A stretch of DNA of 63,940 bases, filler included, from Cladosporium halotolerans (GCF_011745625.1; 6 parts of 6 records of this genome joined end to end with filler, not necessarily neighbours in it); one strand, 5' to 3'; counted from the whole stretch's first letter, positions 1,828 to 61,629 are shown. A program made the numbers and translations. Notes: generated by a model not told the origin, from the sequence alone.

Positions 1828-1969
1828 GAGCCTGCATGGTGGCCGAATGGACACGCAGTCCCAGAGTTGCGTTTAGCTATCCCCAACTGCAGCAGACTCT
1901 TCAACATCGCGTTGCTCGCACCTTTTGCACGAGTCAGAATGCAGCATTTACCGCTTTCGAGACAACCAC

Positions 1970-3171
1970 TTACTTGTTCAGGCCGCGGACCCAGAGCTTC
2001 GCCAGGTCCCCGACAGGTAAATAGAATGGGAACCCCATAGCTTCAAAAAGCTGAACAATGAGCAGGTAGAAGCCGAGTAGACTAGCGACAAAAAGCGAAG
2101 CCCCAGCACCCTTTATTAATTGAGTTAGGTCTTATCGTTGTAGATTTTTCAGCTCAAAACTTTGGGGGGAACACTTACTATCACACATCGATTACCGACC
2201 GAGGCGTCCCCAAGACCCAGTCGCCAGTACGCGGACGACAACAATAGGAAAACCAAGAGCAGCGACAGAAATATTAGCGTATATATAACGTTGGTGCGTG
2301 TCGCGCAGATCATGAAGATTAACATCAGGACGGCCATGGTTATGAATAGAAACGCTAGCGTTGTCGGTTAGAAATATCGACCTGGTTCGCATAGGGATAA
2401 TGTCCACTTGCCATAGGTGTTCATGAAGCCAGTACTCAAAAGTCCGGCGGCTGTATTGGTGCCGGACGGGGAATAGGGAGCTTTGGGTGTGTGAGAACAT
2501 TCTCCGATTTGGAAGGAAGAGGGTGCAGGAACAGACCGGCTGCGTTGAAGGCGGGAATCATTGTGGCCGCAAAGGCGAACCAGAATCCACCTGTCGCGAG
2601 TTAGAAGATACGAGAACAAGGCATGGAGGTGTCCGTCAAAATGCTGATGAACTTACCGATGGTACCGAATACAACGCAGGGGAAAGTGTTGCCGAGTACG
2701 AACTCAAGGATACTCGTGACAAGCAACAAAAGGCCACCAAGGAAGATGATAGGCCCGCTATCCTCGTTACTCAGATCCGAAATCTAGCGTTGTGGCAGTT
2801 GGGGTATCCCTTACGTGAATGCAATCCCATTCCCACTAGCTCCTCTCCAGGCCATCAAGCTACATGAAAGGGGAGTCGTGGTAAGAACGAAGCCTCCTAG
2901 GGCTCTAGGATTGGGCCATACAATTAACCGGAGCTCTCCGAGGCCCAAGGTCCGAAAGTGAGGATATTGCAAGGACTTACAAAGGTGTCGGATTTCCCAT
3001 TTGCTTGGCCAGTGCTGGCTGGCGGCGCATCATCGGAGTCAGGTATAGCTTCTCGAATTGCTCCGCCGTCAGTGTTAACGATGTAGGGACTCTAGATAGT
3101 CCATACATCGAGCTCTCATTGTTGTGTGGAGGAGCCTTTGTCTCGCCATTATGACTGATGTCGTTGTCCAT
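1970..3171 (-). CDS. GPR1/FUN34/YaaH (Ady2/AcpA/AlcS-like) acetate transporter family protein, multi-exon
   Basis: Spliced product MDNDIS...[19 protein letters not shown]...[18 protein letters not shown]...[14 protein letters not shown] introns (e.g. 2905-2980); TAA at 1970-1972. Confidence 0.9.
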
Positions 3172-4546
3172 TTTATCGTCCTCGAGCTGGTCTTGGGTGA
3201 TGAAATAATGTATGGGTATATAGCAGGACACCGATGAATAGAATGAGTGTGCTTGTGAAAGAGCCTCAGGATTGTCAACAGGGCAATTGGGCGCTTTTTA
3301 TTGCCAGCGTCAACTAATCCACTCTAGGCTAAGGGACATTCCCATAGGGCGTCTGATTGGATGCGGCAGAAAGGAAGGAGGGACTACAACTCTGACGCAA
3401 TAATAAGGGCCCTAGTCCTCTCGGCGGAGTGGTGTAGGAGTAGATGCATACTAGCTACGCTGGGGTCTGCCCTAGGTGAGATCGGACTTCGCCTAAAAGC
3501 TTCAACTGACGTGTCCGCCTAGCCGGGCAGAGGGAGGTTTGCAGATCAAGAGGATGCCCTATTCTTTTCTTGAAGAAGACGAAAAAGTTGTTCCTCATCT
3601 CCGAGCCAATAACTAGCAATATCCACAAAAGAAGATCAAGGTGGGGTTTTAATTTGCGGGGAAGCTTAGCGACTAAATGTCACGAGCGGGGGTCGGTTGT
3701 ATCGGTGCGTAGGTATGGTTTCCAATTAGATTAGATACAGAATGGTGAGATGGCAACCTCAAGATTCCTCAGGAGGCTGCACGTAATGGAGACCCATCTG
3801 CGAAATGCCAAATTCCAAGCCCAACACGTTCGTTGCTGCGATTGCCCGGTCTGACTGCCGGGTTATTCGCCGCAATATACTATCCTCTACAGCCCTGTCG
3901 TCCACCGTCCGACAATTCACGCTGCAATCTACTACTTCTGGCAGGCTTAGTGCCTGGACTCCCATCCGCTCCAACAACAAACGAGGATCTGCCCCTTGCT
4001 TCAGGTAGTGTACAAAATTTTGGACCACCGATGGGCGAACATAATTATGTTGCTGCCTGTGCAGCATTGTCTATAAAGACACAAGTCATTACCTACATAG
4101 AACGGCAGGTAGCCTTACAATGACAACGCGTCTACTTCGTCTGTTCCAACAACCCTTCTGCTGCTCTGGGAGGCGGTCAGGAGAGTCAAGCGACCTCAAA
4201 CAGCTTCGCGCAGTCTGTCCGTAAGATGCCATCATCCCCGCCGAGGGCCGTTCACAGCGCGCGCCTCTCTTGGGCGCGCCAAGCCTTCTCTTCTCGCTCG
4301 AGTGGAGACAACGAGATACATCGTGGTGGAGAGAGCAGCGCAGATTGCTGCAGCAATGCCGGTGGGCCGTGCCATGAAGGTGGATGGGTCCTTGACGTTA
4401 CTACCTACTTAACCCCCATTGCCCTCCGCGTAGGAGGCCTTCTTTCCTCCCCCCTCCTCAGCGAAAACACACTTGCTGTGTACTCACTCCCCCCACTTGC
4501 TTTTTTCGAGATAACCCCAGTTCACAAACACACCGAAAGCCTCATC
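3172..4546. promoter_or_regulatory. Divergent intergenic promoter with several CreA-type SYGGRG sites and two TGCGG motifs
   Basis: GCGGAG 3424, CTGGGG 3460, GTGGGG 3641, GCGGGG 3656 and 3686, CCCCGC 4236, GTGGAG 4302; TGCGG 3362 and 3655. These motifs are short, so function is inferred only. Confidence 0.35.
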
Positions 4547-6225
4547 ATGCCTCTCTCCGTCCAGCTCGAGACGCCGCACTCCGGCAAGTACGAGCAGCCT
4601 ACTGGCCTGTAAGTTGATTGAATATGCACCATTGTCTACGCCACGACAATGGCCACTCACACTCACCCGCAGTTTCATCAACAACGAGTTCGTGAAAGGC
4701 GCAGAAGGCAAGACCTTCGAGGTCATCAACCCCTCCACCGAGGAGGTCATCACCTCCGTGCACGAGGCGACCGAGAAAGATATCGACATTGCCGTGGCCG
4801 CGGCTCGCAAGGCCTTCGAGGGCCCGTGGCGGAAAGAGACGCCTGAGAATCGCGGCAAGCTGATCGTCAAGCTCGCCAACCTGTTCGAGGAGAACCTGGA
4901 CCTGCTCGCGGCCGTCGAGTCGCTGGACAATGGCAAGGCCATCAACATGGCCAAGGTCGACATCAGCATGTGCGTTGGCTGCCTGAGGTACTACGGCGGC
5001 TGGGCCGACAAGATCGAGGGCCGTGTCATTGACACTAACCCGGACACTTTCAACTACGCCAAGAAGGAGCCCATTGGTGGTACGTATCCGTCATGCCAGA
5101 AGCTGGCACAGAAGGTTTGCTAATGTGTTTTACCAACAGTTTGCGCTCAGATCATCCCCTGGAACTTCCCCCTTCTCATGTGGGCATGGAAGATTGGCCC
5201 GGCCATTGCTTGCGGTAACACTGTCGTCCTGAAAACTGCTGAGCAGACTCCTCTTGGTGGCCTCGTTGCCGCCAAGCTCATCAAGGAGGCTGGCTTCCCG
5301 CCCGGTGTCGTCAACATCATCTCTGGTTTCGGTAAGATCGCCGGTGCTGCCCTCTCCTCCCACATGGACATCGACAAGGTCGCCTTCACTGGCTCCACCG
5401 TCGTCGGTCGCCAGATCCTCAAGGCTGCTGCCTCCTCCAACCTCAAGAAGGTCACTCTCGAGCTCGGTGGCAAGTCCCCCAACATCGTCTTCGAGGACGC
5501 CGACATCGACAACGCCATCTCCTGGGTCAACTTTGGTATCTTCTTCAACCACGGCCAGTGCTGCTGCGCCGGCTCGCGTGTCTACGTGCAGGAGAGCATT
5601 TACGACAAGTTCGTGCAGAAGTTCAAGGAGCGCGCGGCCAAGAACGTCGTTGGCGACCCGTTCGCTGCGGACACCTTCCAGGGCCCGCAGGTTTCCAAGC
5701 TCCAGTTCGACCGCATCATGGAGTAAGCCCCCCACCCCCCAAACCAGTCAATCCACCACAAAGTCACTAACAATCTCTTCCAGGTACATCCAGGCCGGCA
5801 AGGACGCCGGTGCCACCGTCGAGACCGGTGGCAAGCGCAAGGGCGACAAGGGCTACTTCATCGAGCCCACCATCTTCTCCAACGTCACCGAGGACATGAA
5901 GATCGTGCAGGAGGAGATCTTCGGCCCGGTCTGCTCGATCGCTAAGTTCAAGACCAAGGAGGAGGCCATCAAGCTCGGCAACGACACCACCTACGGCCTC
6001 GCCGCCGCCGTGCACACCAAGAACCTCAACACCGCCATCGAGGTCTCGAGCGCGCTCCGCGCCGGCACCGTCTGGGTCAACACCTACAACACCCTTCACC
6101 ACCAGCTGCCCTTCGGCGGCTACAAGGAGTCCGGTATCGGCCGCGAGCTGGGCGAGGACGCTCTGGCTAACTACACTCAGACGAAGACTGTCAGCATCCG
6201 TCTCGGCGATGCTCTGTTTGGTTAA
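4547..6225 (+). CDS. aldA: NAD-dependent aldehyde dehydrogenase (AldA / Cla h 10-like); exons 4547-4608, 4673-5079, 5140-5722, 5784-6225
   Basis: [27 protein letters not shown], catalytic [31 protein letters not shown]. Three canonical introns keep the frame; strong C/G third-position bias. Confidence 0.97.
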
Positions 6226-24158: not shown

Positions 24159-24420
24159 AATAGATACTAGGAGCTATATACTATCGAATAAAGCTTTAAA
24201 ATTAATAATAAAATAACTTTGTTTTTCTAAATCTATACCCATACTTCCTTATATATACCCTAAACCCTAAGTTCAGTGCTCGTTCATTGCCCACCCTGAC
24301 CTGAACGGTTAGATAACCTTACCTTTCCCCGTAATGCCCGAACGGACAAACCTTTCACCTGTCTATCACGAACTTCTACTATCCCTAACCCTGTCGCGTT
24401 CCTTCTCAAAACCCTACATT

Positions 24421-24620
24421 TGCCTCGCGGCACGGCTGACACCTTCGGGTCACGGGGACACCATTCTTCCCCTACCCACCACCCCCTATCAAACCTCTCT
24501 TCCACTCTTTTCTCGTCTTTCCTACGCCTTCGGCGATTGTGACAACTACGTAGTGCATACTTGCCTCGCGGCGCGGCTGACTCCTTCGGGGCACAGCGCC
24601 ACCATTCTTCCCCACCCACC
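24421..24620. repeat. Two ~60-bp direct repeats (24421-24480, 24562-24620), each with two small hairpins
   Basis: TGCCTCGCGGC.CGGCTGAC.CCTTCGGG.CAC...CACCATTCTTCCCC; the copies differ by 6 substitutions and 1 indel. Confidence 0.85.
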
Positions 24621-24973
24621 ACCTGTAATCATCGTGTCTGATTCATCGCCATACCATCGTTTGTATAGAAGTTGTCATCCTCTCGACCAACGACTTCAAC
24701 TCCTACTTGCTTTGCGAATTCCCCTCTCATACTTCGGGTCTTGCATCGCTTCTTGCGTCTCATCAAACCATCGCAAAATCGTGCAAACATACTGTTTAAC
24801 TGAAAGTAATGCGATAAAAATTGTCGTGCCAATTTTCTCGTTATACGATCGTTTGTTCGGGTCCTGTGATTTTTCCACAAATCCGGCGTCGGATTTTACA
24901 CTTGTAGTAGCGCGCAGCTACTGCTCTTTCCCACCTCATCAACACGTTTCGCCGGTCTGCTCTCTCACTTCGA

Positions 24974-25154
24974 CACGGTTAGCGGGTTTGCTCTCTCTCG
25001 CCTTATCACTCATCAACACGGTTAGCGGGTTAGCGGGTTAGCGGGTTTGCTCTCTCTCTCACTTCATCATCACGGTTAGCGGGTTAGCGGGTTAGCGTGT
25101 TACCGGGTTTGCTCTCTCTCACCTTATCACTCATCATCACGGTCAGCGGGTTTG
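24974..25154 (+). repeat. Higher-order array of telomere-like TTAGCGGG units
   Basis: Four blocks of CACGG(TTAGCGGG)n-TTTG, three followed by CTCTCTCTC, ending about 20 bp from the helicase stop. Confidence 0.85.
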
Positions 25155-25173
25155 ACTTTCATCTTTGATCCGT

Positions 25174-28100
25174 CTATATGCCCCACTTGACTATCAATGC
25201 GTCTACTCCAGCACACTTCTGTCCGCCGTACGTGCCCTTAGTCGATAAGAATTTCTCTAGCCCAGCTTGTGCGCTCTTGCCTTCCTTAATCGCCTGTGTG
25301 AACGCTTCCTGCGCCTGCACCCATTCGCGAACCTCCAGCCCTCCTACGTAGAGCAACGCACCGACGATTGAGCAAATGACGGCACTGCCCGAACACCCAC
25401 CTCGTCTTCCTTCCATCCAGCAACGACATCTCTTGCCTTTTGCCCAGCAGCGAAATCCGGTCGTCCTGAGCGGCGCTTGTAGACTGTTGATGAGCCTCAC
25501 CCCCTCGTGTGCTGCTTCCGTGTGATCTGCGTCGACTTGACAGTCCTGCCATGCGTGATCCGTCCGGTCACGGCCTCTCGCGCGACACACGACGCAGCCC
25601 CGCTCCCACCGCCGCACTATTTCATCCGACTCGAGAGAGCGCATATCGCCGTTGCCTCCTTGCCCTTGCCCGCTCGACGAGCCCTTCCATGATGCCTCCG
25701 GTGCCGGCGCCGGCGTGATTGTCACTTCATCCCCAGTGTCTTCCGCCTGCCCTTCTGTCTCACTCGTGTTGTCTGCCCCTGCCATCTCCCGGTGCTGCTG
25801 TGAGATGAACTCGACGAGAAGAGCGAAGCCGTTGCTTACCACCTCCCCTAGCACTCGTCGCGCGTGCCGGCGTCCGAGCCATGTGACATATCCTCCATCC
25901 TGCCCATCTGCCGCCTCTTCGCCAGAGAATTCCCAGCCCTCCAGAATCTCGGCGCCCTTTCTCGTCTGACGGATTGCTCGCAGCATCGGAGCGGCGATGT
26001 TCGGCCACTGACACTCCGCACCTGTCGACTGTCCGGTGTTACAGAACTTTTGACTCAACCCACATCGGAAACAGCTGTGCGTGTCTCGGTCGAAGCGTAT
26101 GTTGAGCATCGCGGAATCGCCCACCCCGTCCTCAAAGCCGCATGTGCCTGCCACCGTCGATGCGTTGACCTGCCGCGGAAGATTCGCACCCCGGCTGTTG
26201 CAAGACACTCGTTCTTCGACCCAACATACCGGGCAATCGTCGACGAGCTCGCTCAGAACACGCTCCACCCTCGCTCTCGTCTCGCTCGTCTGCCTTTGTC
26301 TTCGCTCGAGAGCGGTCCATCCGTCACCGCAGTTGTCGCAGCGGGCCAATCCGCGCTCGTCGGAGACACAGTCGTGCTCCATACCATCCAAAAAACTGCC
26401 GCTTATCTTCCGCCTACAGCCCCGAGCTCGAACGAAGTCCAGCATAGCTTGCTCGTCCGGGTTTTGCATCTTGTGTCGCATGCGGTCGATCCGTCCTTTT
26501 TCGATGACTATCACGGAATCCACGTCTTCTCCCGCTCGGCCAGCTCGCCCTGATTCTTGCGCGAAATCAATCATGCCCCACGGGATGTCCACGTGTAGAA
26601 CGAGCGTGATACCCGGGAAGTCGACGCCCGTCCCGAGCGCAGATGTAGCGACTATCAGCCCGCCACGCTCTGCCCAGTCAAAAATCCTCTCCTCTCGACC
26701 GTCCGCTTCTGCGTGATAGTAAGCGCATCCAAGCTCGTCGGCCAGTGTCTCACACTCTGCGCGGCTGCGGCAGTAGACCACGCCTTTGCTCCTCCGGCTT
26801 GCTTCGACTCGGTTTGCTTCGACCCAGCTGTGACATATCTCTATCGCTCTGCGCTCGAGCTTGCCCGGCTTGCATTCTTCGACCATGTATCTCGTTCGCT
26901 CCCTCGTCGTATCGGCGCGGATGTAGCGGCAGAACTCGATCGCCATGCAACGCTCGAGTTCGAACTGCATTCGCGGCGGCAGCGTCGCCGTCAGCAACAC
27001 TATCGGACAATCCACTCCTCGCAAACAGCTCAGACGGGCTAGCTTTGCTCGCCAGTGATTCTCCTTGAAGATCAGATGACACTCGTCGATAAAGATCCGT
27101 CGAAGCCGGCCGCTATCCAACAGCTGCTGTGCGTAGCCCAAGAGATTCGTGCCGTCGACGAGATCTGCGCTAGCGAACACGATCGTCGCCGGATTGACCT
27201 CGCCGGGCCGCCACTCCACGCTGTCGATGCCGGCTTTTTTCGCTTTCTCGACCAAGTCGTTGATGAGCGCACGGAACGGGACCACCACAATCGTCACCCC
27301 GGTGCTGTCGAGACACGCGGGCGCGGTGAAGAGCAGACTCTTCCCGCCACCGGTCGGCATCACCACCACCAGCGGCCGGCGTCCACCCTCGACGATCGTC
27401 TCCAGCGCTTCCCTCTGCGTCTCCGAGCGGAATGAAACGTCTGATTTGCAGAGAGCCTTCTGCATTGCTCTTCGGAGTCGATCTTGACCGTCATCTTCTC
27501 TCGGACAACGCCCTTGCCAATTGCGCCTCATTCGCTTGAATGCAGCGAGTACGTCGGTCCGGGGCTCTCTCCCAACGTCGCCATCCTCATGCTCATCTTG
27601 CCGCTTACGTTTCGTGCCGCCCTCCGCTCGACAGCTCTCCAAAGCCAAGAATCGATGCCACTGTTGACAGAGCGGTCGGAACGTGTCGATCGAGCGGCTG
27701 CTCAGATTCTTGATGATATCCATCGACACCCCGTATCGCTTCGCTCCCACCTCACCACCTCTGCCAGCCTGCATCTCAAGCGAATCGTCCGTCTCCTCCT
27801 CCGGCTCGTCAAAGTCGTCGACGTCTCCTAGATATCCGTTCGCGAACTGCTCTCCGATCACCTTTCTGCCGATCGCGATCGCAAGATGCCGGTAGCTGTG
27901 CGTTGTGAGCTCCACGCCGAGATGACGGCCGGTCTCACGTTTCATGACCCTCGTGAGTCTGTCCGTCTCCCACGGGCCGTGCTCGCCCGACCAGATGTAC
28001 TCGCTCGCCATCTGTCCGTTCACCACTCCGGCGAGCAGCTCTTGCAGCGGGCGTGCGTACGCCAAGTACACAGCCATGAGCTGCCCAACACGCCAAGCGA

Positions 28101-30378
28101 GAAAACGCGGGACGACCTTCGGTTGATCGTACTGCGACGCGCTCTTGTGATACCGTGTCACTACGGCCATGTGCCCGTGAACCGCGAAGACGTTGCGATC
28201 TTGCATGTATCCGTTCTTGTACCGGACAGACGTGATCTCCGTGCCACGTGCCGGCTGTCCGCCAGTCCAGTGTACGCAAAGCAATAGTAGCTCTCGGAAA
28301 TGATCTACCCGACGCAGATACTTGCGTGTCTCACGACGTTGCCAGCGCCCTCTCCGCAGAAGCTTCCTGCCCTCGACGTGTGCTTCCATCTGTGCCAGCA
28401 TCCACGCCCGTGTGTCCTCGAGCCCATTGTGTGCGTTGTTTAGAAACGAGTAGCCCCTGCGCGTGAACGTGACGTCGTCCTCTAGCGCATCCACGGGGAT
28501 TTCGAACCGCTCGGAGTCGACCTGCCAGAGTACATCTCGCCATAGTATATTCTCGGCCTCGGTCACCACTGCGTCAACAAGCTTTCTGACCCTCGCGAGC
28601 GGGATCTTCCGACCTCTGTATGCAATTGTGCTGCCATCAAGCGACCAAGAAACCGCTCCGGCATTTGCGTGATTGAACGCGCAGTGCCGGCTATACGCCA
28701 ACAAGCTGATCATCTCTGCCATCGGGCTGAACGATCCGTCGGCGAGATGTTTAAGTCGCAGTTCGAGAAATCGCTCGTCGTCTTCTGCCGTCTCTCCCCT
28801 TCGAAATGTCTTCGGGAGAATGATCTCGACGCCCAGCACTCGGCAACTGTAGACGATCCCAGCCAGCATGAACGAAAAGTCGTTGCCTTCGCGCAATCTG
28901 TGTGTCTCTTCATCGATACCCAGCACCGCCAGAAAGTGCAACAACGGGCTCTCGAAGACGTCCACCCTTACATGCTGAAATAGAACATGCCTGAAAAACT
29001 CCAGCATGACCATTTCCGGTGACCCAGTGCGGCGCGACGGAGACAGCGCTCTCCAAAGCCGACCCACGATCTCGTACAAGCCGCTCGGCCACGGGTATAA
29101 TCTTCGAGCATCTTCCATCGTGTCGATTTCGCGTATGCCACTGCCCGTCGATCCGCTGATCGTATTAGATCCTGTTGCACCTCTTATATCATCTTCCTCC
29201 TCTCCACCTTCCTCCTCTCCACCTTCCTCCTCTCCATCTTCATCCTCTCCACCTTCCTCCTCTCCACCTTCCTCCTCTCCATCTTCATCCTCTCCATCTT
29301 CCTCCTCTCCACTTCGCAAGCCTGTTGCCTCACAGCTTTCCCACACTCGAAGTGTATAGCAAACGAATCGGGTCATGTAACCGGCGTATCGCTTCTGACT
29401 GTCTTCATTCTGTAGTCTTGCCATCGGTCGTGCGTCCGGTTCGGATGCCTTTGCGCTTCGTAGCCACCGCCTAATGACATGCCCGAGTGTCGGCAGTCCT
29501 TTGACGCACTCTTCAACTAAACCTTCAACCCGCTTCGGTACATCTTCGAGTGTTCCTTCGTCTCGGCCCGGTAAACAACAAGCACGGCTCAGATGCCGCA
29601 AATTGCTTTTTGCTAGATGTTGCGGCCATTTGTTGCGTTTGAACCATAGTGTGTGATCGGTTTTTGCCATAGTAGCTTCGGCCACCTGCATTGCTTCTTC
29701 TTGCTGTTCCAGACGCCGGTCCCAATCTTCTATAACTTGCTGACTCTGCGAGCTCATCCCGTCCTTCGACTGCTCCGCTTCCCGTACGCTCTCGTCGTGA
29801 TAGTCGACCACGAAATACCGGCGATGCGCTTTCGATTGAAACATCGTCTGTACGTATACTGCATGCCAGTGTTCCGGGTCGTCGACATTCGACTTCCATG
29901 CATGCTCCTTGTAACAGTGCTTTCTGATCTCATCACGGCTTATCGAGATCTTGCTACACCCGGGTTCGTCGCACAGATATCCTCGCATCGGCGCCCCAAG
30001 CCAGTCTAACGGTGCCTGAAGCGTCGGCGGTGTCGTGACTTGTGCCGGTTCCAGCAATTCGCAAGCGCCAAACTTCTTTTCTATTGCGGCCCTCTCAGAG
30101 CTTCGGACTTTATGTTGCAGCCTTAGATGCGTTGCCAAGTTCCGGACAGCGTATCCGTGATACCGGCAGACGAGCACTCTGTATCGAGAATCGTAGTAGA
30201 GCCATTCGTCGGCGTTTCCTGCAACAATCTCCAATCCGTCTTCGTAGCCAATCGCGCTGTCAGATGCGAATGTACTATTTGCTGTGCACGGGCTGCCGTG
30301 TGTTAGACTCCACGACCGTTGTGTCGCGGGCGTCGCCACTTCCGACACCCAGCTTGCGAGTGAGCTTGCATCGGCCAT
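25174..30378 (-). CDS. Telomere-linked-helicase-type protein: DUF3505/OrsD Zn-finger N-terminus, tyrosine-recombinase-like central domain, RecQ-like SF2 helicase and Cys-rich C-terminus (1734 aa, intronless)
   Basis: VLVCRYHGY...CDEPGC...KHCYKEH; GQPARGTE, YHKS, HSYRH, QAGR, KRYG; MPTGGGKS, DECH, LLTATLP, ATSALGTGVD, QESGRAGR, CRR...CDNC. Confidence 0.9.
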   Translation of the reverse strand: MADASSLASWVSEVATPATQRSWSLTHGSPCTANSTFASDSAIGYEDGLEIVAGNADEWLYYDSRYRVLVCRYHGYAVRNLATHLRLQHKVRSSERAAIEKKFGACELLEPAQVTTPPTLQAPLDWLGAPMRGYLCDEPGCSKISISRDEIRKHCYKEHAWKSNVDDPEHWHAVYVQTMFQSKAHRRYFVVDYHDESVREAEQSKDGMSSQSQQVIEDWDRRLEQQEEAMQVAEATMAKTDHTLWFKRNKWPQHLAKSNLRHLSRACCLPGRDEGTLEDVPKRVEGLVEECVKGLPTLGHVIRRWLRSAKASEPDARPMARLQNEDSQKRYAGYMTRFVCYTLRVWESCEATGLRSGEEEDGEDEDGEEEGGEEEGGEDEDGEEEGGEEEGGEEEDDIRGATGSNTISGSTGSGIREIDTMEDARRLYPWPSGLYEIVGRLWRALSPSRRTGSPEMVMLEFFRHVLFQHVRVDVFESPLLHFLAVLGIDEETHRLREGNDFSFMLAGIVYSCRVLGVEIILPKTFRRGETAEDDERFLELRLKHLADGSFSPMAEMISLLAYSRHCAFNHANAGAVSWSLDGSTIAYRGRKIPLARVRKLVDAVVTEAENILWRDVLWQVDSERFEIPVDALEDDVTFTRRGYSFLNNAHNGLEDTRAWMLAQMEAHVEGRKLLRRGRWQRRETRKYLRRVDHFRELLLLCVHWTGGQPARGTEITSVRYKNGYMQDRNVFAVHGHMAVVTRYHKSASQYDQPKVVPRFLAWRVGQLMAVYLAYARPLQELLAGVVNGQMASEYIWSGEHGPWETDRLTRVMKRETGRHLGVELTTHSYRHLAIAIGRKVIGEQFANGYLGDVDDFDEPEEETDDSLEMQAGRGGEVGAKRYGVSMDIIKNLSSRSIDTFRPLCQQWHRFLALESCRAEGGTKRKRQDEHEDGDVGREPRTDVLAAFKRMRRNWQGRCPREDDGQDRLRRAMQKALCKSDVSFRSETQREALETIVEGGRRPLVVVMPTGGGKSLLFTAPACLDSTGVTIVVVPFRALINDLVEKAKKAGIDSVEWRPGEVNPATIVFASADLVDGTNLLGYAQQLLDSGRLRRIFIDECHLIFKENHWRAKLARLSCLRGVDCPIVLLTATLPPRMQFELERCMAIEFCRYIRADTTRERTRYMVEECKPGKLERRAIEICHSWVEANRVEASRRSKGVVYCRSRAECETLADELGCAYYHAEADGREERIFDWAERGGLIVATSALGTGVDFPGITLVLHVDIPWGMIDFAQESGRAGRAGEDVDSVIVIEKGRIDRMRHKMQNPDEQAMLDFVRARGCRRKISGSFLDGMEHDCVSDERGLARCDNCGDGWTALERRQRQTSETRARVERVLSELVDDCPVCWVEERVSCNSRGANLPRQVNASTVAGTCGFEDGVGDSAMLNIRFDRDTHSCFRCGLSQKFCNTGQSTGAECQWPNIAAPMLRAIRQTRKGAEILEGWEFSGEEAADGQDGGYVTWLGRRHARRVLGEVVSNGFALLVEFISQQHREMAGADNTSETEGQAEDTGDEVTITPAPAPEASWKGSSSGQGQGGNGDMRSLESDEIVRRWERGCVVCRARGRDRTDHAWQDCQVDADHTEAAHEGVRLINSLQAPLRTTGFRCWAKGKRCRCWMEGRRGGCSGSAVICSIVGALLYVGGLEVREWVQAQEAFTQAIKEGKSAQAGLEKFLSTKGTYGGQKCAGVDALIVKWGI
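29190..29312 (-). repeat. In-frame 15-bp minisatellite encoding (G/D)GEEE acidic repeats
   Basis: TCCTCCTCTCCA(C/T)CT-type units encoding GEEEDGEDEDGEEEGGEEEGG... Confidence 0.85.
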
Positions 30379-30989
30379 CGCTTCGTGCGACGAGACGGGC
30401 CTCGTGAATTATCTTCAAAAATGACATGCAGTCGCTCTGTGATTTCCACGACAGACCGTCATTGTTTGCTCGGTAGCTGCCATGAATTTGTTTATTTTAC
30501 ACGGGAATTGTCAAGACGCGGGGCGCTCGTGTTGCGCTCGCGTTAACCCTAAATTTCACACGCCCTGCGAGTATCGACTCTTGTACTTCAACCGTCCCAA
30601 CGTCGACCATGTACGACATAACACTCCAAAAATCGTAGAACTGTTTTTCTAGAGAGAACGCGACTCAGCGAAAATTATCATGTAAATTATATTGATATAC
30701 GATCGTTTGAGCTTGACGACGTATTTCTGCAAAAAGCTGAACTACAAACATTGTTTCTCGCTAGCAAGTTTTGAATCTGAATGTGAGCCTCGATTTCCGT
30801 CCGACTTCTGACATGATTAAAACTCTGTCAGTGACCGCTTACCATCCAATCCTACATGCGAGTACCAGAATCGTAATTTATTCATAACATTTGCGACGAA
30901 ATCATAACTTGGGGATGACTTCCTTGGGGAAGACTACAATGCTACTCAAAACGGAAATCCAGTAGCCGCTTGCCGTTAGCGCCGACTTG

Positions 30990-31035
30990 GGGTTAGCTGG
31001 GGATAAGTGTTCCCCTCCGCTGCTTTTTGGTTAGG
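30990..31035. repeat. 46-bp hairpin-containing motif shared with 59578-59667 (putative element terminus)
   Basis: GGGTTAGCTGGGGATAAGTGTTCCCCTCCGCTGCTTTTTGGTTAGG is 37/46 identical to the contig-6 repeat. Confidence 0.7.
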
Positions 31036-32010
31036 ATTGATACGGTATTGACATCATTGTCACGCATAACTAGACTCTTACTTTTGGTCTACGCACTGAA
31101 CGTGGCTACATTCAGGATTAGACTCCAACTTTGTGTTGAAGATCGAAGAAGCTACATAAGATACTACAATCGAGACGAAAGAGCTTGTGTTCATTTTGCT
31201 CAACACTTTGAACATCGGAGTTGTACATAGGGCTGAGGGTTAGGGTATTTCACCAGCGCCCGAGTTCATGACACGCCTTCGTCGTTACTACGCATAGCGG
31301 GCGTGTTGCGAGGTAACAAATAGCGTTTGTGGGTTCGTTGATATGTTTTGTCACCTGAGTAGAAGCCTTCTGATGCATGTCTTTAGTGTCAATTACACCG
31401 CTCACTTTCACCGGAAAACTATGCCATTTTCCTGGCGCTAGACTATTTTCGGACGACATTTACAGTGTCATTGGGATATCCTCTCGGTCAGGTGTTTATC
31501 TTCCAGCTGTCACGGTCGGGACGTGACAATGTCTAGCGGTCTGCCTGAGGCACGCCATAATAACCAAGATGTACCGCAGCGAATTGAATCCGTTCATATA
31601 TTCTTTGAAAAGGTGTTATACGCAAGTGATACGATCAAATTCAACAGGTTTTTTCTCCACGTCGATGGCACGAGCGAGGTTTCGAAAGCTGAAAGCGTGA
31701 TACATGATAGCAGTGCAAGCGAGTCGCCAAGGCATCTCAGGATCAGCGAAGCAGCAGGCTCATAACGAGTACCAGACGAGGCCTAAGACTAAGCAGGTAT
31801 CAGAGCAGAGAACCAATGAGTAATAAATGGAGCACACGACAAAGCCATCATCAAAGCAGACACCATTGTGTTTTTCAAAGAAAGGACCGTCGATTTGAAA
31901 TCATATCGTACCAACATTGACATTATTCGCGATGCCGCACTCGCAGCCGTGAGGCAAAGCCATCTTCAATCGCCGACTTCACGAATTTGACAACACTCCT
32001 CCCTCACCAA

Positions 32011-35000
32011 CTATCCACTCAATTTCCTCCCCCACATTAAACTAACAGCAGCCAAAATAACTGGCGCAACACTCACAATCTCACCCAAACCAGCATACGC
32101 CGGCCCAATCCTTACCTTCACAAACGCGCCAGACGCCAACAAAATCGCAAAGAAGTTATACACCGCACTCCACGCAAAATTGAACAGGATCCGTCTCACA
32201 GCCCTTCTCGACAACTCCAGCAGTGTGATCAAACCCCCAAGATCCTTTGAAAGAATGACCACGTCGGAAACAGCACCTGTGACATCCGAGGCACTCCCCA
32301 TCTGCACTCCAATATCTGCTTGAGCGATAGCAACAGCGTCGTTCGTGCCGTCGCCGATGAACAGAATGGTGCGCTTACTCTCGGGAGTACAGGTTTGGAG
32401 AGTATGCACGTACTCCTGCTTCTCAGAGGGAGAGGCGCGTGAGCGAATATTGGATTCCTCGACGCCAAGAGTTTTCGCGATGTCCAGGACAGCGGCGGGG
32501 TTGTCCCCGCTTACGATGTGAGTTGTGATTTTGCGGCGGTGAAGATCGGCGATGATAGCTGCAGCGTTAGAGCGAAGAGTGCTCTTCAGGCCGACGACGA
32601 GGATGGGGTCGTTGTTCAAAGTGACGCAAAGGAGTGTCATTGCTTGCTGGAGAAGACCTGCGACTTTCGAGTGGTCCTCCAATTTGAGCCAGTACGGGTT
32701 TCCAGCCTTGAGGAGAGAGCCGTGGTGTTGAGCTTCGATGCCAGCGCCCGGGATGGAAGTGATATTCTCCAGTCTGATCTTCGAGGCTCCACCCATGGCC
32801 TTTCCCTTGAGGTGTTCTGCTACAGCAACAGACACGGGATGCTCGTTCCCTTCGACCATTGCTTTTCCAAGTGACATGATCGACTCCTCCGATAAAGTCT
32901 CCGAAGGAAGTGTCTGCGTATGCACGACCTGCAAGTCTCCCTCGGTGAGAGTTCCAGTCTTGTCGAAAACGACATCAGTCATTTTATAGCTTCTCTCAAT
33001 CGCGTCCGCAGCTTTGATAACCACGCCAGCTCGCGCGGCCACTCCGCCTGCAATGACTAGAACCATAGGGACAGCCAAGCCGAGTGCACATGGACAAGAG
33101 ATGGCCAGTACAGCGATAGCATAGGTGATTGCCAAGCCGACAGCACCACCACCATTTCTGTTGCGGATCTCGATGGCAACTGCAATCCAGATGCAAAAGA
33201 CTATAACAGCAATTGTAACCACGACCGGAATGAAATACGACGCAACCCGATCCGCGAGATCTTGAACTCTTGGCTTCGCCGCAACAGCATTCTCCACTAG
33301 CGTGGCGATGTCCGAGATGCTGTTGTCGCCAGGAAGGCGGGTGAGCTGAACACGAAGAGTACCGGATCCATTTATGGTGCCAGCGATGAGATTATTCCCA
33401 GTCTGCTTTGCAACTGGAAGACTTTCGCCAGTCACCATTGACTCATCGACATCGCTCGCTCCATCAATTACAGTCCCATCCGTAACGATGCGACTGTGTG
33501 GCTGAATGACGATGGAATCCCCAAACTGGAGCAGTCTAGCGTCGATCTTCGACGAATCTCCGGAACTTCCCAAAAGAAGCGCCGTTTCAGCCTGTAGGGA
33601 CCGAAGGGAAACGATAGACAAAGCTTTCATCCTTGCCCAAGCAGCCATAAGCCGGCCGAGAAGCACGAGCGTAATGAGCAGCGTGCTGGTCTCGAAGAAT
33701 GGTCCTTGCTCTAAATCGAAACCTGCTCGCTGCAAGCCGTATGCCACAACAGAATAGCCGTACGCTGCAGAGATGCTGATAACAACCAGCATGTCCATTT
33801 CGATCACACGGCTGTAGATGAGCGATTTAGTAGCTCCAATGTAGAATTCTGGGACGGCAATAAGTTGCACACCAGTTCCTAAGATCAGTGCTACCAGCTC
33901 GACGGTACTGGAGGGCAAATGATTGTCTGACCACTCGAGGACAACAACAGGGATGGTGAGCGTCGCAGCCAAAGCCGTGCTCAAAGCGTTACTGAGAAGA
34001 CTCTTTTTGCCCTCAGCAATACCAGCAGAGTCTTGCGGAGGCGAAAGCTGGGCAGTGGGTGGGAGAACAACTCGGGCGCCGACTACACGAGGATTGTAAG
34101 TGATGTAGTAGTTGTCCTTCTTCTTCTTGTCCTTTACAATTGACATCACGCCAGCTGGCAGGCAATGCGCGATCTCTCTGGCGGCAGTAGCAGACATGAG
34201 AACATGCAGTTCCTGGAAGCCACTCACCAGGCGAGAGCACTTGAAGCCGGTTTCCTTCTCCACGCGCTGGAGGACATCCTCAACCTTACCAGCGACGCCA
34301 GAATCCAGATCAAATTCGGCGTTGCCAGAAACAAAGGTTACCTGGGCGTTAGAGAGTCCAGAGATTCCGCCGAGTACGTTCATCATCTTCTTACTGCAGC
34401 CCGTGCATGTCATGCCAGTGACATCGAGTACAACGTGCTCTCTGGCCGAATCTTGTTCGACATCCACTGGCTGGTTCCGAGTTTCGACAGCAGCCTCTTG
34501 TTTCCTGTTCTTAACAGAGCTCGGGGCATCGAATGAGCAGCGAGGATGGATTGCAGATGCGGTCGAGACAGCAGCAAACTTCTCCTTGGAGAGTGTTTCC
34601 GTCATAGATGCTGCAGTCGAGGCGTTCTTCTTCCTCGTTACCACTTCCGCGGGAATAGAAGCAGGATCACAGCAGTTGAAGCCCCACTGCTCTTGAACAC
34701 GACGGCAGAGGCATTGGCCCCTCTTGAGCATAGCATCGAGGCGGTCCATGGTGGTTTGGAAGTTGTCGATACAAGCTGACAGAGGTGAACATGGAGCATT
34801 TTGGGGGGTGTCCCGGCAGCAAGAATCGCCGCAGTCTTCGAGAGGTTGTACTCTGACCTCCAGGGATTTGCTGCGGCAGTCGCCAGACTTGATCTTCTCA
34901 CCGCAGGACTTCTCATTGGCTGTGTTTCCAGTCTTCTTCGGCAAAGTAGAGGAGCAGCAGCTTTCCCTCGTGGTCGAATTGTAGGAGGTAGGGCTCGTCA

Positions 35001-35601
35001 GGGTAGCTTTCTCAGATGAGCGGCAGTCATCAACGACTTTCTCACTGTAGCACTCATCGTCCTGGGTCGCAGATAGGCTGCAGCCCGAAGTCGACGCAAC
35101 AACGTTAGCATCTTTCTCACCGCCGCAGCAGTCTCCCTTATTCTTTTTTCCCGGGGAAAAATCGCAGCATCCAGAAGATCTCTCGGCATCTTCTCCAGAG
35201 GAGCAAATTTCTTGTCCATCTCTGCCATCGCCACAGCACCCTTCGCTCTCCTTCGGAGTTGGGCCACAACACCCAGAGCCCGTGGTCTTGGCGTTCTCAG
35301 CCACGACAGGTTCCACCTCGGAGCAGCATCCACCACGGATCTTATCCACATCTCCGCACCTCCCAATCTGCTTTCCAGTTTTAGTCGAAGCTGAACCACT
35401 ATCTCCATCCTCTACAGTCTTGACCCTCTCACCAGAACCACCATTCTCTCCATCCTCCTCTTTCTCGCCACCACAACAGGCCTCCTCACATCCACCCGCC
35501 TTCCCTAATCCATCCGTCTCACGCGTTGCATTGTCAAGACTGCACAATCTCGCCGCGATCCGCGTCAGGCATTCCTCTACACTCTCACCATCAGCAGCCA
35601 T
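32011..35601 (-). CDS. P1B-type heavy-metal-transporting ATPase, Pca1/PcaA-like (Cd/Cu), intronless, 1196 aa
   Basis: Long CC-rich N-terminus, single HMA GMTCTGC, TGESLPV, ISCPCALGL, DKTGTLT, NEHPV, GDGTND; last helices YN...GEIVS. Confidence 0.93.
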   Translation of the reverse strand: MAADGESVEECLTRIAARLCSLDNATRETDGLGKAGGCEEACCGGEKEEDGENGGSGERVKTVEDGDSGSASTKTGKQIGRCGDVDKIRGGCCSEVEPVVAENAKTTGSGCCGPTPKESEGCCGDGRDGQEICSSGEDAERSSGCCDFSPGKKNKGDCCGGEKDANVVASTSGCSLSATQDDECYSEKVVDDCRSSEKATLTSPTSYNSTTRESCCSSTLPKKTGNTANEKSCGEKIKSGDCRSKSLEVRVQPLEDCGDSCCRDTPQNAPCSPLSACIDNFQTTMDRLDAMLKRGQCLCRRVQEQWGFNCCDPASIPAEVVTRKKNASTAASMTETLSKEKFAAVSTASAIHPRCSFDAPSSVKNRKQEAAVETRNQPVDVEQDSAREHVVLDVTGMTCTGCSKKMMNVLGGISGLSNAQVTFVSGNAEFDLDSGVAGKVEDVLQRVEKETGFKCSRLVSGFQELHVLMSATAAREIAHCLPAGVMSIVKDKKKKDNYYITYNPRVVGARVVLPPTAQLSPPQDSAGIAEGKKSLLSNALSTALAATLTIPVVVLEWSDNHLPSSTVELVALILGTGVQLIAVPEFYIGATKSLIYSRVIEMDMLVVISISAAYGYSVVAYGLQRAGFDLEQGPFFETSTLLITLVLLGRLMAAWARMKALSIVSLRSLQAETALLLGSSGDSSKIDARLLQFGDSIVIQPHSRIVTDGTVIDGASDVDESMVTGESLPVAKQTGNNLIAGTINGSGTLRVQLTRLPGDNSISDIATLVENAVAAKPRVQDLADRVASYFIPVVVTIAVIVFCIWIAVAIEIRNRNGGGAVGLAITYAIAVLAISCPCALGLAVPMVLVIAGGVAARAGVVIKAADAIERSYKMTDVVFDKTGTLTEGDLQVVHTQTLPSETLSEESIMSLGKAMVEGNEHPVSVAVAEHLKGKAMGGASKIRLENITSIPGAGIEAQHHGSLLKAGNPYWLKLEDHSKVAGLLQQAMTLLCVTLNNDPILVVGLKSTLRSNAAAIIADLHRRKITTHIVSGDNPAAVLDIAKTLGVEESNIRSRASPSEKQEYVHTLQTCTPESKRTILFIGDGTNDAVAIAQADIGVQMGSASDVTGAVSDVVILSKDLGGLITLLELSRRAVRRILFNFAWSAVYNFFAILLASGAFVKVRIGPAYAGLGEIVSVAPVILAAVSLMWGRKLSG

Positions 35602-36113
35602 TCATCCCCGACTTCGCCGCGTGAAACGCCGGATCATACATACCATCACAGTGTTTCTTCTTACGAGAAAAAGAGGGTTTGCAGGGCATGATTGCTGTTG
35701 TGTTCCGGTCGTGTCGTTGTTGCTGTGTTGATTCGAGATGTGGTGTGGAGAAGGAAAGGAAGAACCTGGGGACATAGACAGCTTTAGACTGTGATAACGC
35801 CTAGAAAAGCGGGCGCGCTAAGGCCTCAACCCACAGTCTGAGGTGGGGAAGTAGCACGTGACAGCAGAGCACGGATCGTGTGACCTGCAGAATACTATGC
35901 TTACGTCATTGTAGGGGAAGCGGATCAGTACGGGAAGCGGATCACCCCCGCGCGCCCTGAGAGTCCGCATACGGCCCTTTCGGTTCTGTCTTCTTTATTG
36001 TTTTTGAGAAAAAGGACGCTTTTCAAGTAAATACTGTGCCTAGTTGGCAGATCTAACCAATGGCCGCCACTGTGCGCCCGTCGTCGCAGCTCGACGACAG
36101 CGCGTCGACAGGA

Positions 36114-59569: not shown

Positions 59570-59576
59570 CCGCCTT

Positions 59577-59668
59577 AGGGTTAGTAGGAGATCAGTGTTC
59601 TCCTCCGTTGCCTTTTGGCGAGGGTTAGTAGGAGATCAGTGTTCTCCTCCGTTGCCTTTTGGCGAGGA
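59577..59668 (+). repeat. Perfect 44-bp tandem duplication (59577-59620, 59621-59664) followed by AGGA
   Basis: AGGGTTAGTAGGAGATCAGTGTTCTCCTCCGTTGCCTTTTGGCG x2. Confidence 0.92.
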
Positions 59669-60150
59669 GCGTCAGGCTTGAGAGAAAGATTGACACAACA
59701 GGTAGCAAATCTTGACAAGCTCATAATTGACCTAGCGTGCACGGCCATAATGGATCACGCGCACCAAGGCCTGCAAGGCGCAGCATAGCCGAAGAGGAAC
59801 TGTTGGCCATGCCCTAGGTTTGTCTGAGTTCATAGCACCGAGGCGAATGACTTTGCCGCGATTGCCCGATGACCCGACTTTCACATGCCCCGGCACATTC
59901 TGACAGCCTACAATAGGGACCGAGGCTAGGCCCCACGGCGGGCTTTTCTCCCATTTCATCGTTTATTCCTGAAAGCCACTGATTGGCTCAAGATAATTTG
60001 CGAGGTTCCGCTGGGTGCAATTCTCTCTTCTTGAGGAACTACTGGGGAGGAGGGCTTTGTGACCCATGCAACTCGTGTCAATGAACACCATCTATCCGCC
60101 TCTACCAAGGTGTAAAATGCATCATGCTCTCTCTCTAAAGACCCTGTGCG

Positions 60151-61629
60151 TCAGCCACTGAGTTGCGTTCTCTTTCCAGTCATCCGACGGTACAACCAAA
60201 CACAAAAGGCAATACCGTTGTCGTCAATGAGTGTTGTCGCAACTTCAGCAACCCACAATGTAGCAGGCAGAAGCAAACATTGCGCAGCAAAAAAATTGAG
60301 CTCCATGGCAAATGGCCCAATAGCAGGGATCGGAAGCCTGTTGGACCATTTGGGGATCCGCATAGCGTGTGACTCCCTCGAGAACCCAACAGCTGCGTAT
60401 ATTCTATCGCCCAGCGTCCATAATATAGGCCCGTGTATCAGATAGAACATGTATGATATCCGACCCAGGTACTGGCAAAAGCAGGACTCAAAGAATCGGC
60501 GAAGCCACGAAATACGTGGCACAGAGACCACCAAAAAGGCGGAAGCGAAGAAGAGATAGAACCATTTGTAGTCAAAGACTGCTTGAGGCTTGAAAATTGA
60601 CAGTGTATGCCATCCCGGTGAATCGCGCAGCACCTGGATGTCGGAGTCAAAGGAAGGAGCACCGCCCAGATAGAAGCTCACAAGAAAGAGTGAATGGAAA
60701 AAAGGCGATTTGAGTCTTTCCATGCGCATGATCCAGGCTGGCAAAGAGCCGCTCGCCACGATATGGTCGATGTCCGACAGCAGCATCCCTGTCATGAACA
60801 TCGCATAATGGGCACCATCTGCAATGTACAGCAGGTAGAAAATCAACACTGCCTGGCAAAGTAGACGTGCCCTCTGGGTACAGCGGGAGAGGGCATTGCA
60901 GGTTGTGTAGATTAGAAGTGACCCTTTCATCTCCACGGGAATGGACCATGTGTGCGCGTTGTAGGAGAGCCATGGCTCTCCACCAGTGCGAAAGACGAAA
61001 GTGAAATTTTTCACGTCGACATACCACTTCCAAATACCAGCGCTGTAGGTGGGCTCGGGGATGAAGTCTGCCAAGATTCCAAATACGTGCCATAGAGAGA
61101 GGGTCATGAAGGTGGTGACGATGATAGGTAGATACAGCCTGAGCCATCTTCGGAAAAGCGCAGATGCAAGTTTGTCTCCAAGTTTGGTGTATTCGCCAGC
61201 GTTCATCAAAGCCAGTGGTTGTGTTGAGAGGACGTAGCCAGAAAGAACGAAGAATGTGGAGACTGCGTAGTGGCCTCCGGTAAAAAAGTTGCGGATGCCA
61301 GGCATGGCAGCTACGTAGTAATCGCCTTGATAGCCCCAGGCGTTCTCGAGTTTGAAATCGGCTTTCTGAGCGTCGTGGCTCCATAGCTCATGATGAAGAA
61401 TGTACACCAGCAGCGCAGCGAATCCTCTGATGCCGTCCAGGTATGCCGTGGGTCGCAGTTTTGCATGTTTGACGGACAGCCGCTTCATGAAGCCAGGCCT
61501 AAGCGCAAGCAAGGTTGCATGGAGGAATCGTGATGCATGCCGGAGAGCCACGAAAAGTCGCTTCGGCGCGGTCGTCTCGGCAAAAGTATTGCCCTTCTCC
61601 GCAATAGATTCCAGTTCTTCATCGGTCAT
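60151..61629 (-). CDS. Acyltransferase family 3 membrane O-acyltransferase (CHIP3-like)
   Basis: TAYLDGIRGFAALLVYILH, AVSTFFVLSGYVL, FRRWLRLYLP, HTWSIPVE, YLGRISYMFYLIHGP; first ATG at 61629. Confidence 0.9.
   Translation of the reverse strand: MTDEELESIAEKGNTFAETTAPKRLFVALRHASRFLHATLLALRPGFMKRLSVKHAKLRPTAYLDGIRGFAALLVYILHHELWSHDAQKADFKLENAWGYQGDYYVAAMPGIRNFFTGGHYAVSTFFVLSGYVLSTQPLALMNAGEYTKLGDKLASALFRRWLRLYLPIIVTTFMTLSLWHVFGILADFIPEPTYSAGIWKWYVDVKNFTFVFRTGGEPWLSYNAHTWSIPVEMKGSLLIYTTCNALSRCTQRARLLCQAVLIFYLLYIADGAHYAMFMTGMLLSDIDHIVASGSLPAWIMRMERLKSPFFHSLFLVSFYLGGAPSFDSDIQVLRDSPGWHTLSIFKPQAVFDYKWFYLFFASAFLVVSVPRISWLRRFFESCFCQYLGRISYMFYLIHGPILWTLGDRIYAAVGFSRESHAMRIPKWSNRLPIPAIGPFAMELNFFAAQCLLLPATLWVAEVATTLIDDNGIAFCVWLYRRMTGKRTQLSG

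Follow-up and report, generated by a model that had tools for sequence, protein, structure and literature searches.

Telomere-linked helicase (TLH) genes lie at the chromosome ends of many fungi, and their role has been a question since the 1990s. In Magnaporthe oryzae, according to PMC1635262, repeats upstream of TLH form the boundary to chromosome-unique DNA, and similarity between the ends is lost at CCTAACCAGTAATA (CCTAACC...), with either the first or the second C of this unit; one of these repeats, HAR-D, holds an imperfect palindrome, and another, HAR-C, carries telomere-like bases in the same reversed polarity as at the locus described below. The term helicase-associated repeats (HAR) was found, within the literature searched, in PMC1635262 alone. 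For Fusarium oxysporum the available parts of two sources (10.1101/2024.02.27.582403, PMC12857005) describe TLH-containing regions (TLHcr), a near-identical TLH unit present at many ends. It is complete or truncated, stands alone or in arrays, and is bordered on either side by a single interstitial telomere repeat. For Zymoseptoria, PMC4522978 describes a telomeric RecQ family, and for the yeast X and Y' subtelomeric elements PMC1635262 summarises TTAGGG-like short repeats. Here we analysed a stretch of 63,940 nucleotides (nt) from Cladosporium halotolerans (GCF_011745625.1), referred to as the window. It joins six complete contigs from a fragmented fungal assembly in order of length, with N spacers between them. 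Contig 3 (24159-36113) carries a TLH-type helicase gene and, between this gene on the left and a P-type ATPase gene on the right, both on the minus strand, a 46-nt motif with a small dyad. We consider it probable that this motif is the outer end module of a multi-copy TLH element and the functional counterpart of HAR-C and HAR-D of M. oryzae.

The locus resembles the HAR-C, HAR-D and HAR-F loci (Rehmeyer et al. 2006) in that the repeats lie upstream of the TLH start codon and the boundary is sharp; tandem units are seen here in some copies, though not on contig 3. Read in gene sense, the contig 3 joint consists of host DNA followed by CCTAACCAAAAAG, which is the M. oryzae heptamer of the accessible text in the same reversed polarity and at the same border. 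Three features of a TLH boundary repeat were found, namely an adjoining TLH-type gene, a sharp shift to locus-specific DNA and a telomere-like motif within the unit. Apart from the telomere-like bases, however, the HAR and the contig 3 module are unrelated in sequence, and their hosts belong to different fungal classes. Whereas the accessible text reports large compound arrays ending 181 base pairs (bp) from the ATG in M. oryzae, one or two units of 44-46 bp lie about 650 bp away here, and the fixed distance of 20 bp between dyad and joint as well as the direct GGGGA sites have no described counterpart for M. oryzae in that part of PMC1635262. Fusarium TLHcr, in turn, has been mapped on whole chromosomes, whereas here contig fragments are at hand; a palindrome, a defined joint and a recombinase-like domain are not described for it in the available parts of the two sources. 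The yeast Y' element likewise is a helicase-bearing end element with telomere-like sites at its inner border and tandem arrays. We know of no report of a recombinase-like domain in the Y' helicase.

Within the window the pattern GGGTTAGNNGGRGATNAGTGTTCYCCTCCG has three matches (30990, 59578 and 59622), all on the plus strand, with none expected from 100 dinucleotide shuffles. The second and third lie on contig 6 (59570-63940, starting at 59570 and cut by the window end), where two units form a perfect tandem at the extreme left end of the contig; the period is 44 nt and thus differs from 46. A preceding interpretation made from the sequence alone, termed the sequence-only reading in the following, had reported 37 of 46 identical positions between 30990-31035 and 59578-59623. 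Recounting gave the same value, and blastn showed the likeness to be wider, covering 57 nt (30982-31038 vs 59570-59626, 79%) and taking in 8 nt to the left of GGGTTAG. The stems described in that reading, GGGGA-TAAGTGT-TCCCC on contig 3 and GGAGA-TCAGTGT-TCTCC on contig 6 (dyads at 59587-59603 and 59631-59647), are present, and the double change from G:C to A:T is real. Its distance of about 650 bp to the start codon also agrees with our count of 657 nt between the joint at 31035 and the helicase ATG at 30378 (minus strand).

Copies outside the window were collected in one scan of metagenome contigs with a degenerate 29-nt pattern, which yielded 12 copies from related fungi on 11 contigs, the 12 loci corresponding to 11 contigs because L003 and L004 are one contig. 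Together with contig 3 and contig 6 the metagenome copies give 14 joints. GGGTTAG and GGNTAGG occur in every motif copy, and a search of the window and these loci with a 63-nt end profile (nhmmer) detected no further or degenerate copy, the next best match having E = 3.1. At all 14 joints the left side is common and the right flanks are unrelated from one and the same position, directly after TTGGNTAGG; oriented alike, every copy closes with ...CCGCYGCYTTTTGGNTAGG. The end of an element family that had been proposed at this site is thus borne out. The boundary motif AGGA given with it has to be corrected, as the shared end is ...TTGGNTAGG and an A follows in 7 of the 14 joints only (first flank base A 7, T 6, C 1, G 0); an extra TTAGC or TTAGG opens the flank in two. 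The flanks of the metagenome copies hold ordinary genes, coding for an aldehyde dehydrogenase, a HAD hydrolase, a dynamin, a NACHT-ankyrin protein and a DUF6601 protein. Some copies are solo end fragments that keep the last 67 bp (L001), 112 bp (L004b and L012) or 332 bp (L010), and all copies other than the four with at least 700 nt on the left lie within about 80-470 nt of a contig edge, as is the case for repeats in short-read assemblies. The 16-30-nt sequences beside the other joints and the unoccupied site have no occurrence in the window. Ordinary recombination among chromosome ends cannot give 14 such joints, therefore a site-specific step or a physical DNA end is to be expected at this position. 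Telomerase healing and telomere-seeded break-induced copying were rejected as the source of the joints, since the telomere-like bases have the reverse polarity.

A physical DNA end of a particular kind would be provided if the joint were the relic of a second telomere. The element would then be, or once have been, free linear DNA with a telomere at each end. The module would be the sequence beside the inner telomere, and this telomere, worn to one or two repeats, was fused to a broken or eroded chromosome end while the other telomere serves as cap. The layout is that of a linear replicon, as the joint reads C-strand CCTANCC towards the helicase and CCCTAAACCCTAAG on the far side runs in the opposite direction. 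Moreover, the base N varies (G, C, T, or CGAGG) as it does at the base of a telomere, the two joints with an extra TTAGC or TTAGG fit, and the polarity of HAR-C is likewise reversed according to the accessible M. oryzae text. Among 15 copies, however, there is neither a free linear form nor a copy followed by a telomere array, exactly one repeat is found at 12 of the 14 joints, which is tighter than random erosion would leave, and a dyad would not be needed. We thus regard a telomere relic as distinctly improbable and return to the end module.

The contig 6 locus could be compared with other strains. Of the words of 59570-61600, fractions of 0.99 and 0.96 recur in contigs of two sequencing runs, X20 and X22, respectively, which may represent the window's own source. 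Over the repeat their word depth is 332-5909, compared to 37-110 over the flank, which is not a copy number and is read only as many copies; the contigs leave the repeat into at least seven different sequences on the right, and a 202-nt contig of X20 (depth 2277) extends 148 nt beyond the left end of contig 6. In contrast, contigs of X1 and X2, which bear other organism labels and show 2 base differences over about 1.9 kb, have their match to contig 6 confined to 59664 and the DNA to its right. To the left of this position they continue with 2,639 nt of unlike DNA before the contig ends. The zero cover to the left of 59664 was used only together with these loose ends running into unlike DNA. 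X1 and X2 thus have the contig 6 locus without the repeat, placing the joint at 59663/59664. The unoccupied site carries GAGGAGCG, so that GAGG is common to the repeat end and this single available unoccupied site, and the A of AGGA therefore belongs to the flank. Thus AGGA followed by divergence, as the sequence-only reading had it, is indeed seen after both copies, but its last base is flank or microhomology and lies outside the signal. Both contigs end at the same distance of 2.6 kb, which points to a repeat or the end of a chromosome at that place, and the pattern would fit a source strain that lost terminal DNA and was then re-capped.

Two further kinds of end module, here called Z and Y, occur in related loci, and each of them is joined to foreign DNA after a 9-mer similar to TTGGNTAGG. 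Module Z (L004 1455, L010 125) reads GGGGGCTGTTGA-TG-TCAACAGGCCCC, followed by 20 nt and the end CATATTGGCTAGG or CATATTAGCTAGG, whereas module Y (L004 657 and 758, in 107-nt tandem units) reads CGAGTCCA-GC-TGAACTCG and ends 19 nt before CATATTGGTTAGG. The arms comprise 12 nt, 11 of them paired, in Z and 8 nt, 7 of them paired, in Y, and they end 20 and 19 nt, respectively, before the TTGGNTAGG (or TTAGCTAGG) joint. The flanking blocks of Z align gap-free with those of Y, yet the two modules have inverted repeats of different sequence. When each of the 31 occurrences of the 9-mer in window and loci was scanned, there was an inverted repeat of at least 5 pairs 19-21 nt before the end in 18 of 18 module ends and in none of the 13 other occurrences, the 18 ends representing four sequence types only. 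As different inverted repeats are found at the same distance from the joint in Z and Y, the dyad looks functional. Tandem units are present on contig 6 (two) and in module Y of L004 (two), and single units on contig 3 and in all 12 metagenome copies. Both the Z and the TLH module contain further copies of a dyad arm: Z has three direct copies of its left arm, and the TLH module has TGGGGA three times in direct order within 97 nt (3 of the window's 9 matches to TGGGGAWNA, all on one strand, the third at 30998-31006). In L004 517-1455 and L010 1-125 the last of the three direct GGGGGCTGTTGAYGT repeats of Z is a 26-nt palindrome, which is followed by 20 nt up to TAGG. The repeated arm copies together with one inverted pair, and likewise the sequence conservation of the loop, point to several binding sites arrayed in double-stranded DNA, and the dyad itself is probably a double-stranded protein-binding site. 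As a separate observation, Z and tandem Y units are joined to truncated TLH end pieces.

The sequence-only reading had taken the dyad for a covarying, structurally selected hairpin. Among five distinct sequences four stem pairs are invariant and one is changed on both sides; in a control 92 of 500 shuffles do as well, and a simulation of nine random changes in 46 positions gave P = 0.015 for a kept stem with at least one compensated pair, a value from a test chosen after the fact. As evidence for covariation the single double change is thus weak, but inverted repeats at the same distance from the joint in the other modules uphold the idea that the dyad is selected. Repeat-induced point mutation as origin of the double change was rejected, as neither change is in CpA/TpG context. 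In single-stranded DNA the 5-bp stems of contig 3 and of the metagenome copies fold with z values of +0.26 to +0.96 (contig 3 alone +0.26 to +0.39), the contig 6 type hairpin reaches z = -2.5 to -2.75, in part via a second small stem that is not conserved, and the Z hairpin has -11.8 kcal/mol and z = -3.2. The loop is conserved as well as the stem, with the second base alone varying (C, A, T).

Taken literally, the hairpin would be a signal in single-stranded DNA or RNA, guiding cutting or termination at a fixed distance. Inverted repeats 19-20 nt before the joint in four module types would be expected from this, as would the stable Z hairpin and the one compensated pair, and the protein described below couples a nuclease-like fold to a helicase. 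The 5-bp stems, however, have positive z values, and a loop as conserved as the stem (its second base aside) points to the sequence being read, and not the shape. Furthermore, no Rep/HUH domain was found by Pfam, a T opens the flank in only 6 of the 14 joints, and there is no match to an Rfam family (none at E <= 1 over 30380-32010) or to a tRNA (none found by ARAGORN in 30700-31300). Of all the explanations weighed here, a hairpin signal is the least probable. The empty ARAGORN and Rfam searches also led us to reject a tRNA, SINE or Pol III origin, which a 5-bp stem, a 7-nt loop and a T run had suggested, and a protelomerase-type hairpin end at the dyad is unlikely as the joint is 20 bp away. 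We prefer to regard the dyad as a putative site recognized in double-stranded DNA.

From the joint inwards the module consists of the 9-mer TTGGNTAGG, 11 conserved bases (20 bp in total), the GGGGA-N7-TCCCC dyad and GGGTTAGC, followed by two direct GGGGA sites within about 130 bp and, about 650 bp in, the ATG. Its conservation was compared between contig 3 and L007, which carries a helicase homologue with 72.6% identity over amino acids (aa) 1-813 and an ATG 647 nt inside the joint. From the ATG outwards the identity per 50 columns is 28, 34, 62, 70, 48, 62, 62, 62, 40, 44, 60, 74 and 92%, with 8 of 9 at the tip; the 657-nt upstream region outside the end block thus has 28-74% per 50 nt, and the helicase coding DNA 77.7%. 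The end module is the best conserved non-coding part of the element and the only part common to all copies, solo fragments included. A second conserved element is TTAACCCTAAAT, some 170 nt before the ATG. It belongs to an island of 41 nt with 85-88% identity in L004, L007 and L011, the surroundings being diverged, and probably is a site for a telomere-repeat factor in the TLH promoter.

Sites of this type are also what one would expect if the module were a passive boundary of the subtelomere, that is, if it separated the TLH region from chromosome-specific genes by a cluster of sites to which a telomere-repeat factor of the host (Tbf1/Tay1-type) binds, had an insulator or silencing role as in yeast X and Y', and spread by ordinary recombination among ends only. 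No copy departs from the half-sites GGGTTAG and GGTTAGG, the promoter region has a second conserved telomere-like site in TTAACCCTAAAT, and the accessible text of PMC1635262 proposes such a role for the telomere-like HAR sequences, drawing a parallel to yeast X. Recombination among ends alone, however, can yield neither 14 joints at one position nor solo pieces of 67-112 bp with new flanks, and the constant distance to the joint of a dyad that changes in sequence as well as the direct GGGGA repeats, which are not telomere-like, would be left unexplained. A purely passive boundary is thus unlikely, though it is the strongest of the three competing explanations, and an end module that takes part in joining accounts better for these features.

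The product of the element gene is RecQ-like and combines an OrsD/DUF3505 zinc-finger region (aa 60-159) with a DEAD (aa 986-1135) and a Helicase_C domain (aa 1192-1283). It has 211 relatives at E <= 1e-5, and among the matches listed the named ones belong to Dothideomycetes and bear the designation RecQ or superfamily II helicase. Within aa 600-960 a tyrosine-recombinase-like fold is predicted. This region was folded together with 27 relatives (model pLDDT 75.7), and among the Foldseek matches listed almost all are tyrosine recombinases (Cre, XerH, XerA and the lambda and Tn1549 integrases; best E = 4.7e-3), while VIA-align gave Z values of 10.9 for XerA (rmsd 2.9 over 154 residues) and 10.4 for Cre and XerH. 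The term YR-helicase used in the sequence-only reading is supported as regards the predicted fold, although no Foldseek match reaches E 0.001. R711, K745, R830, H831 and Y882 are invariant in 28 sequences, with Y882 located in a stretch of pLDDT < 50. The Pfam integrase model does not match the element protein, nor was a Rep/HUH domain found by Pfam, the sole library used. Protelomerases are missing among the matches listed by Foldseek or VIA-align, although absence from such lists proves little, and when viral_contigs was scanned with the protein alignment, 599 stretches fitted the pattern but none of them is a relative. The literature searched contains no paper linking TLH with a tyrosine recombinase, nor one that treats a tyrosine recombinase together with a RecQ helicase in a context both subtelomeric and fungal. 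Within the helicase open reading frame (ORF) an acidic run, EEGGE/DEDGE, is encoded by a 15-nt tandem repeat (29175-29339). Database relatives with 100% identity over aa 440-960 have total lengths of 1708-1719 aa instead of 1734, so that the run may be of variable length.

Core sites of tyrosine recombinases exchange strands inside the spacer of their dyad. Like loxP, dif, FRT and the Cryptons, the locus combines a short dyad with a 7-bp centre and an adjoining gene with a predicted recombinase catalytic fold; the dyad has the form 5-7-5 (GGGGA-N7-TCCCC), or 7-3-7 with one mismatch, which matches that of recombinase sites but is weak evidence alone. Unlike loxP, dif and FRT sites, however, the arms have only 5 bp, the Pfam integrase model is unmatched and homology breaks outside the dyad, 20 bp to its right at 14 of 14 joints; the dyad is therefore no classical crossover site, and the att function put forward in the sequence-only reading is hypothetical. 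Helitron 3' ends and IS200/IS605 elements have a subterminal hairpin at a fixed distance of 10-20 nt from a short conserved end and use a DNA-cutting fold, which is fused to a helicase in Helitrons. The locus resembles them in the hairpin near a short conserved end and in a protein joining a DNA-cutting fold with a helicase, but here the hairpin end lies upstream of the gene and on the opposite strand. Furthermore, the helicase is RecQ-like and not of the Pif1 type, Pfam detects no Rep/HUH domain, and there is no A-to-T target (T in 6 of 14), in contrast to Helitrons.

A position consistently upstream of DUF3505-RecQ genes, as had been predicted for the motif, is found on contig 3 and in L007 but not in the solo end fragments L001 and L004b; L004a has 470 nt of homologous upstream region up to the contig edge. 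L011 is 100% identical to contig 3 over 1098 nt and therefore stems from the same species. It contains a stack in one orientation, made up of an element cut at codon 171, a DUF3505 gene cut at about codon 563 and the intact end of another element. The cut DUF3505 gene is a second, divergent one (L011 16-2285, 563-aa ORF, OrsD E = 8e-15), which is joined to a contig 3 type end and whose upstream region has two direct TTATCATGGAATCTGCCCC repeats and CCCTAACCCTAA. Adjacent elements have the same orientation in four of four pairs (two in L011, one each in L010 and L004), and a fifth such pair in L009 is probable (E = 0.027). These stacks fit a repeated attachment of elements to ends.

Based on these findings the module would be a cis-acting array of double-stranded protein-binding sites that sets the position of cutting or joining. 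New copies would be attached through the module wherever a chromosome has lost its terminal DNA, the attachment involving microhomology of a few bases, and repeated rounds of attachment would lead to stacks of 3'-truncated elements in the same orientation. As binder we tentatively prefer the element's own protein, with somewhat less than even confidence, the alternative being a host telomere-repeat-binding factor. Taken one step further, TLH genes would be engines of self-propagating elements and not host genes of telomere repair, with their own protein binding the GGGGA sites and the dyad, cutting and joining 20 bp away at TTGGNTAGG and capping broken ends. This wider proposal is speculative, and we hold it to be rather less probable than its opposite.

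Several observations weigh against an end module that attaches to chromosome ends. The four module types may share ancestry, so that they would be fewer than four independent cases. Covariation at the contig 3 dyad is a single event, and a dyad of this type, just 5 bp long, does not fold into a better hairpin than shuffled sequence. Four copies have 700 nt or more of DNA on the left, and only two of these (contig 3 and L007) include a helicase. No telomere array was found at a contig end among the contigs examined, for which reason the position at chromosome ends is inferred, based on M. oryzae, the CCCTAA remnant and the stops of the X1 and X2 contigs; the 2.6 kb of the latter may sit elsewhere in the source strain instead of being lost. 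At the joint the telomere-like bases have a polarity opposite to that which healing of a telomere would leave, and simple capture models do not account for this. The element is delimited at its outer end only, and the binder proposed above is a guess. Finally, a 'family-2' element in L011 has no TAGG end at its joint: both this joint (2285/2286) and the break-off of the helicase in L007 (about 3725-3741) lack a TAGG end and a dyad, and some truncation joints are therefore without such a module. Beyond the break-off point L007 has a 422-aa ORF with an HNH_2 endonuclease domain (1792-3057).

The features of the window are compiled below. On the 3' side of the helicase gene there are three repeat units with GGTTAGCG, an 8-nt variant of the telomere repeat, and the region 24159-24271 at the end of contig 3 may represent a former telomere that later received a further element. 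The 3' region of the element also contains two direct repeats of 53-64 nt that are 89% alike (24420-24623), each ending with ATTCTTCCCC, which on the other strand is GGGGAAGA, the 8-mer of the end module inverted. In the host flank of contig 3, GGGTTAGGG (31237-31245) amounts to 1.5 telomere repeats and lies 200 nt outside the joint, downstream of the ATPase gene. Elsewhere in the window the start of contig 2 (12092-12189) and the end of contig 4 (47699-47797) are reverse complements with about 96% identity, both contigs breaking in one repeat.

Table 1. Coordinates of the end modules, the element and the flanking host DNA in the window
Feature	Position	Strand	Remarks
46-mer, last 46 bp of the probable outer end module, contig 3 type	30990..31035	+	joint directly after 31035
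Smallest common end piece, about 67 bp	30970..31035	+	91% over 67 nt; sole part kept in the solo fragment L001
Conserved end block, about 130 bp	30905..31035	+	82-84% identity to metagenome relatives; last 59 columns 54/59
Dyad GGGGA-TAAGTGT-TCCCC	30999..31015	.	20 bp between its right arm and the joint
Terminal telomere-like 9-mer TTGGTTAGG, general form TTGGNTAGG	31027..31035	+	common to the unrelated-looking modules Z and Y (L004, L010)
Two more direct copies of the left dyad arm, TGGGGATGA and TGGGGAAGA	30910..30933	+	
Second conserved non-coding island, with telomere-repeat-like TTAACCCTAAAT (30543-30554)	30530..30570	+	kept in L004, L007 and L011
Element gene, 1734 aa	25174..30378	-	Pfam: OrsD, DEAD, Helicase_C
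Repeats directly 3' of the helicase stop, with (GGTTAGCG)2-3	24935..25152	+	polarity as GGGTTAGC of the end module
CCCTAAACCCTAAG, remnant of a telomere repeat in opposite polarity, outside the element on its 3' side	24258..24271	+	left of it 100 nt AT-rich to the contig end
Host flank of contig 3: 3' region and ORF (32011-35601) of a heavy-metal P-type ATPase	31036..35601	-	
Two perfect tandem 44-nt units, contig 6 type end module	59578..59665	+	joint 59663/59664 to 59667; GAGG also in the unoccupied site
Host flank of contig 6: acyltransferase_3 gene (60151-61629)	59664..61629	-	in two other strains the flank runs left into unrelated DNA instead of the repeat

With an end module that is short and delimited to the exact base, the spread of TLH regions can be approached in concrete terms. 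It is better conserved than the adjoining gene, and its architecture of a dyad, 20 bp and a telomere-like 9-mer is common to other modules; the fixed spacing between dyad and joint adds to what is described for TLH boundary repeats and could make TLH function testable. In fragmented assemblies the module can serve as an annotation marker for the border between the TLH region and chromosome-specific DNA. If the proposal of a self-propagating element is true, the element would attach to broken or eroded chromosome ends and give them a new cap.

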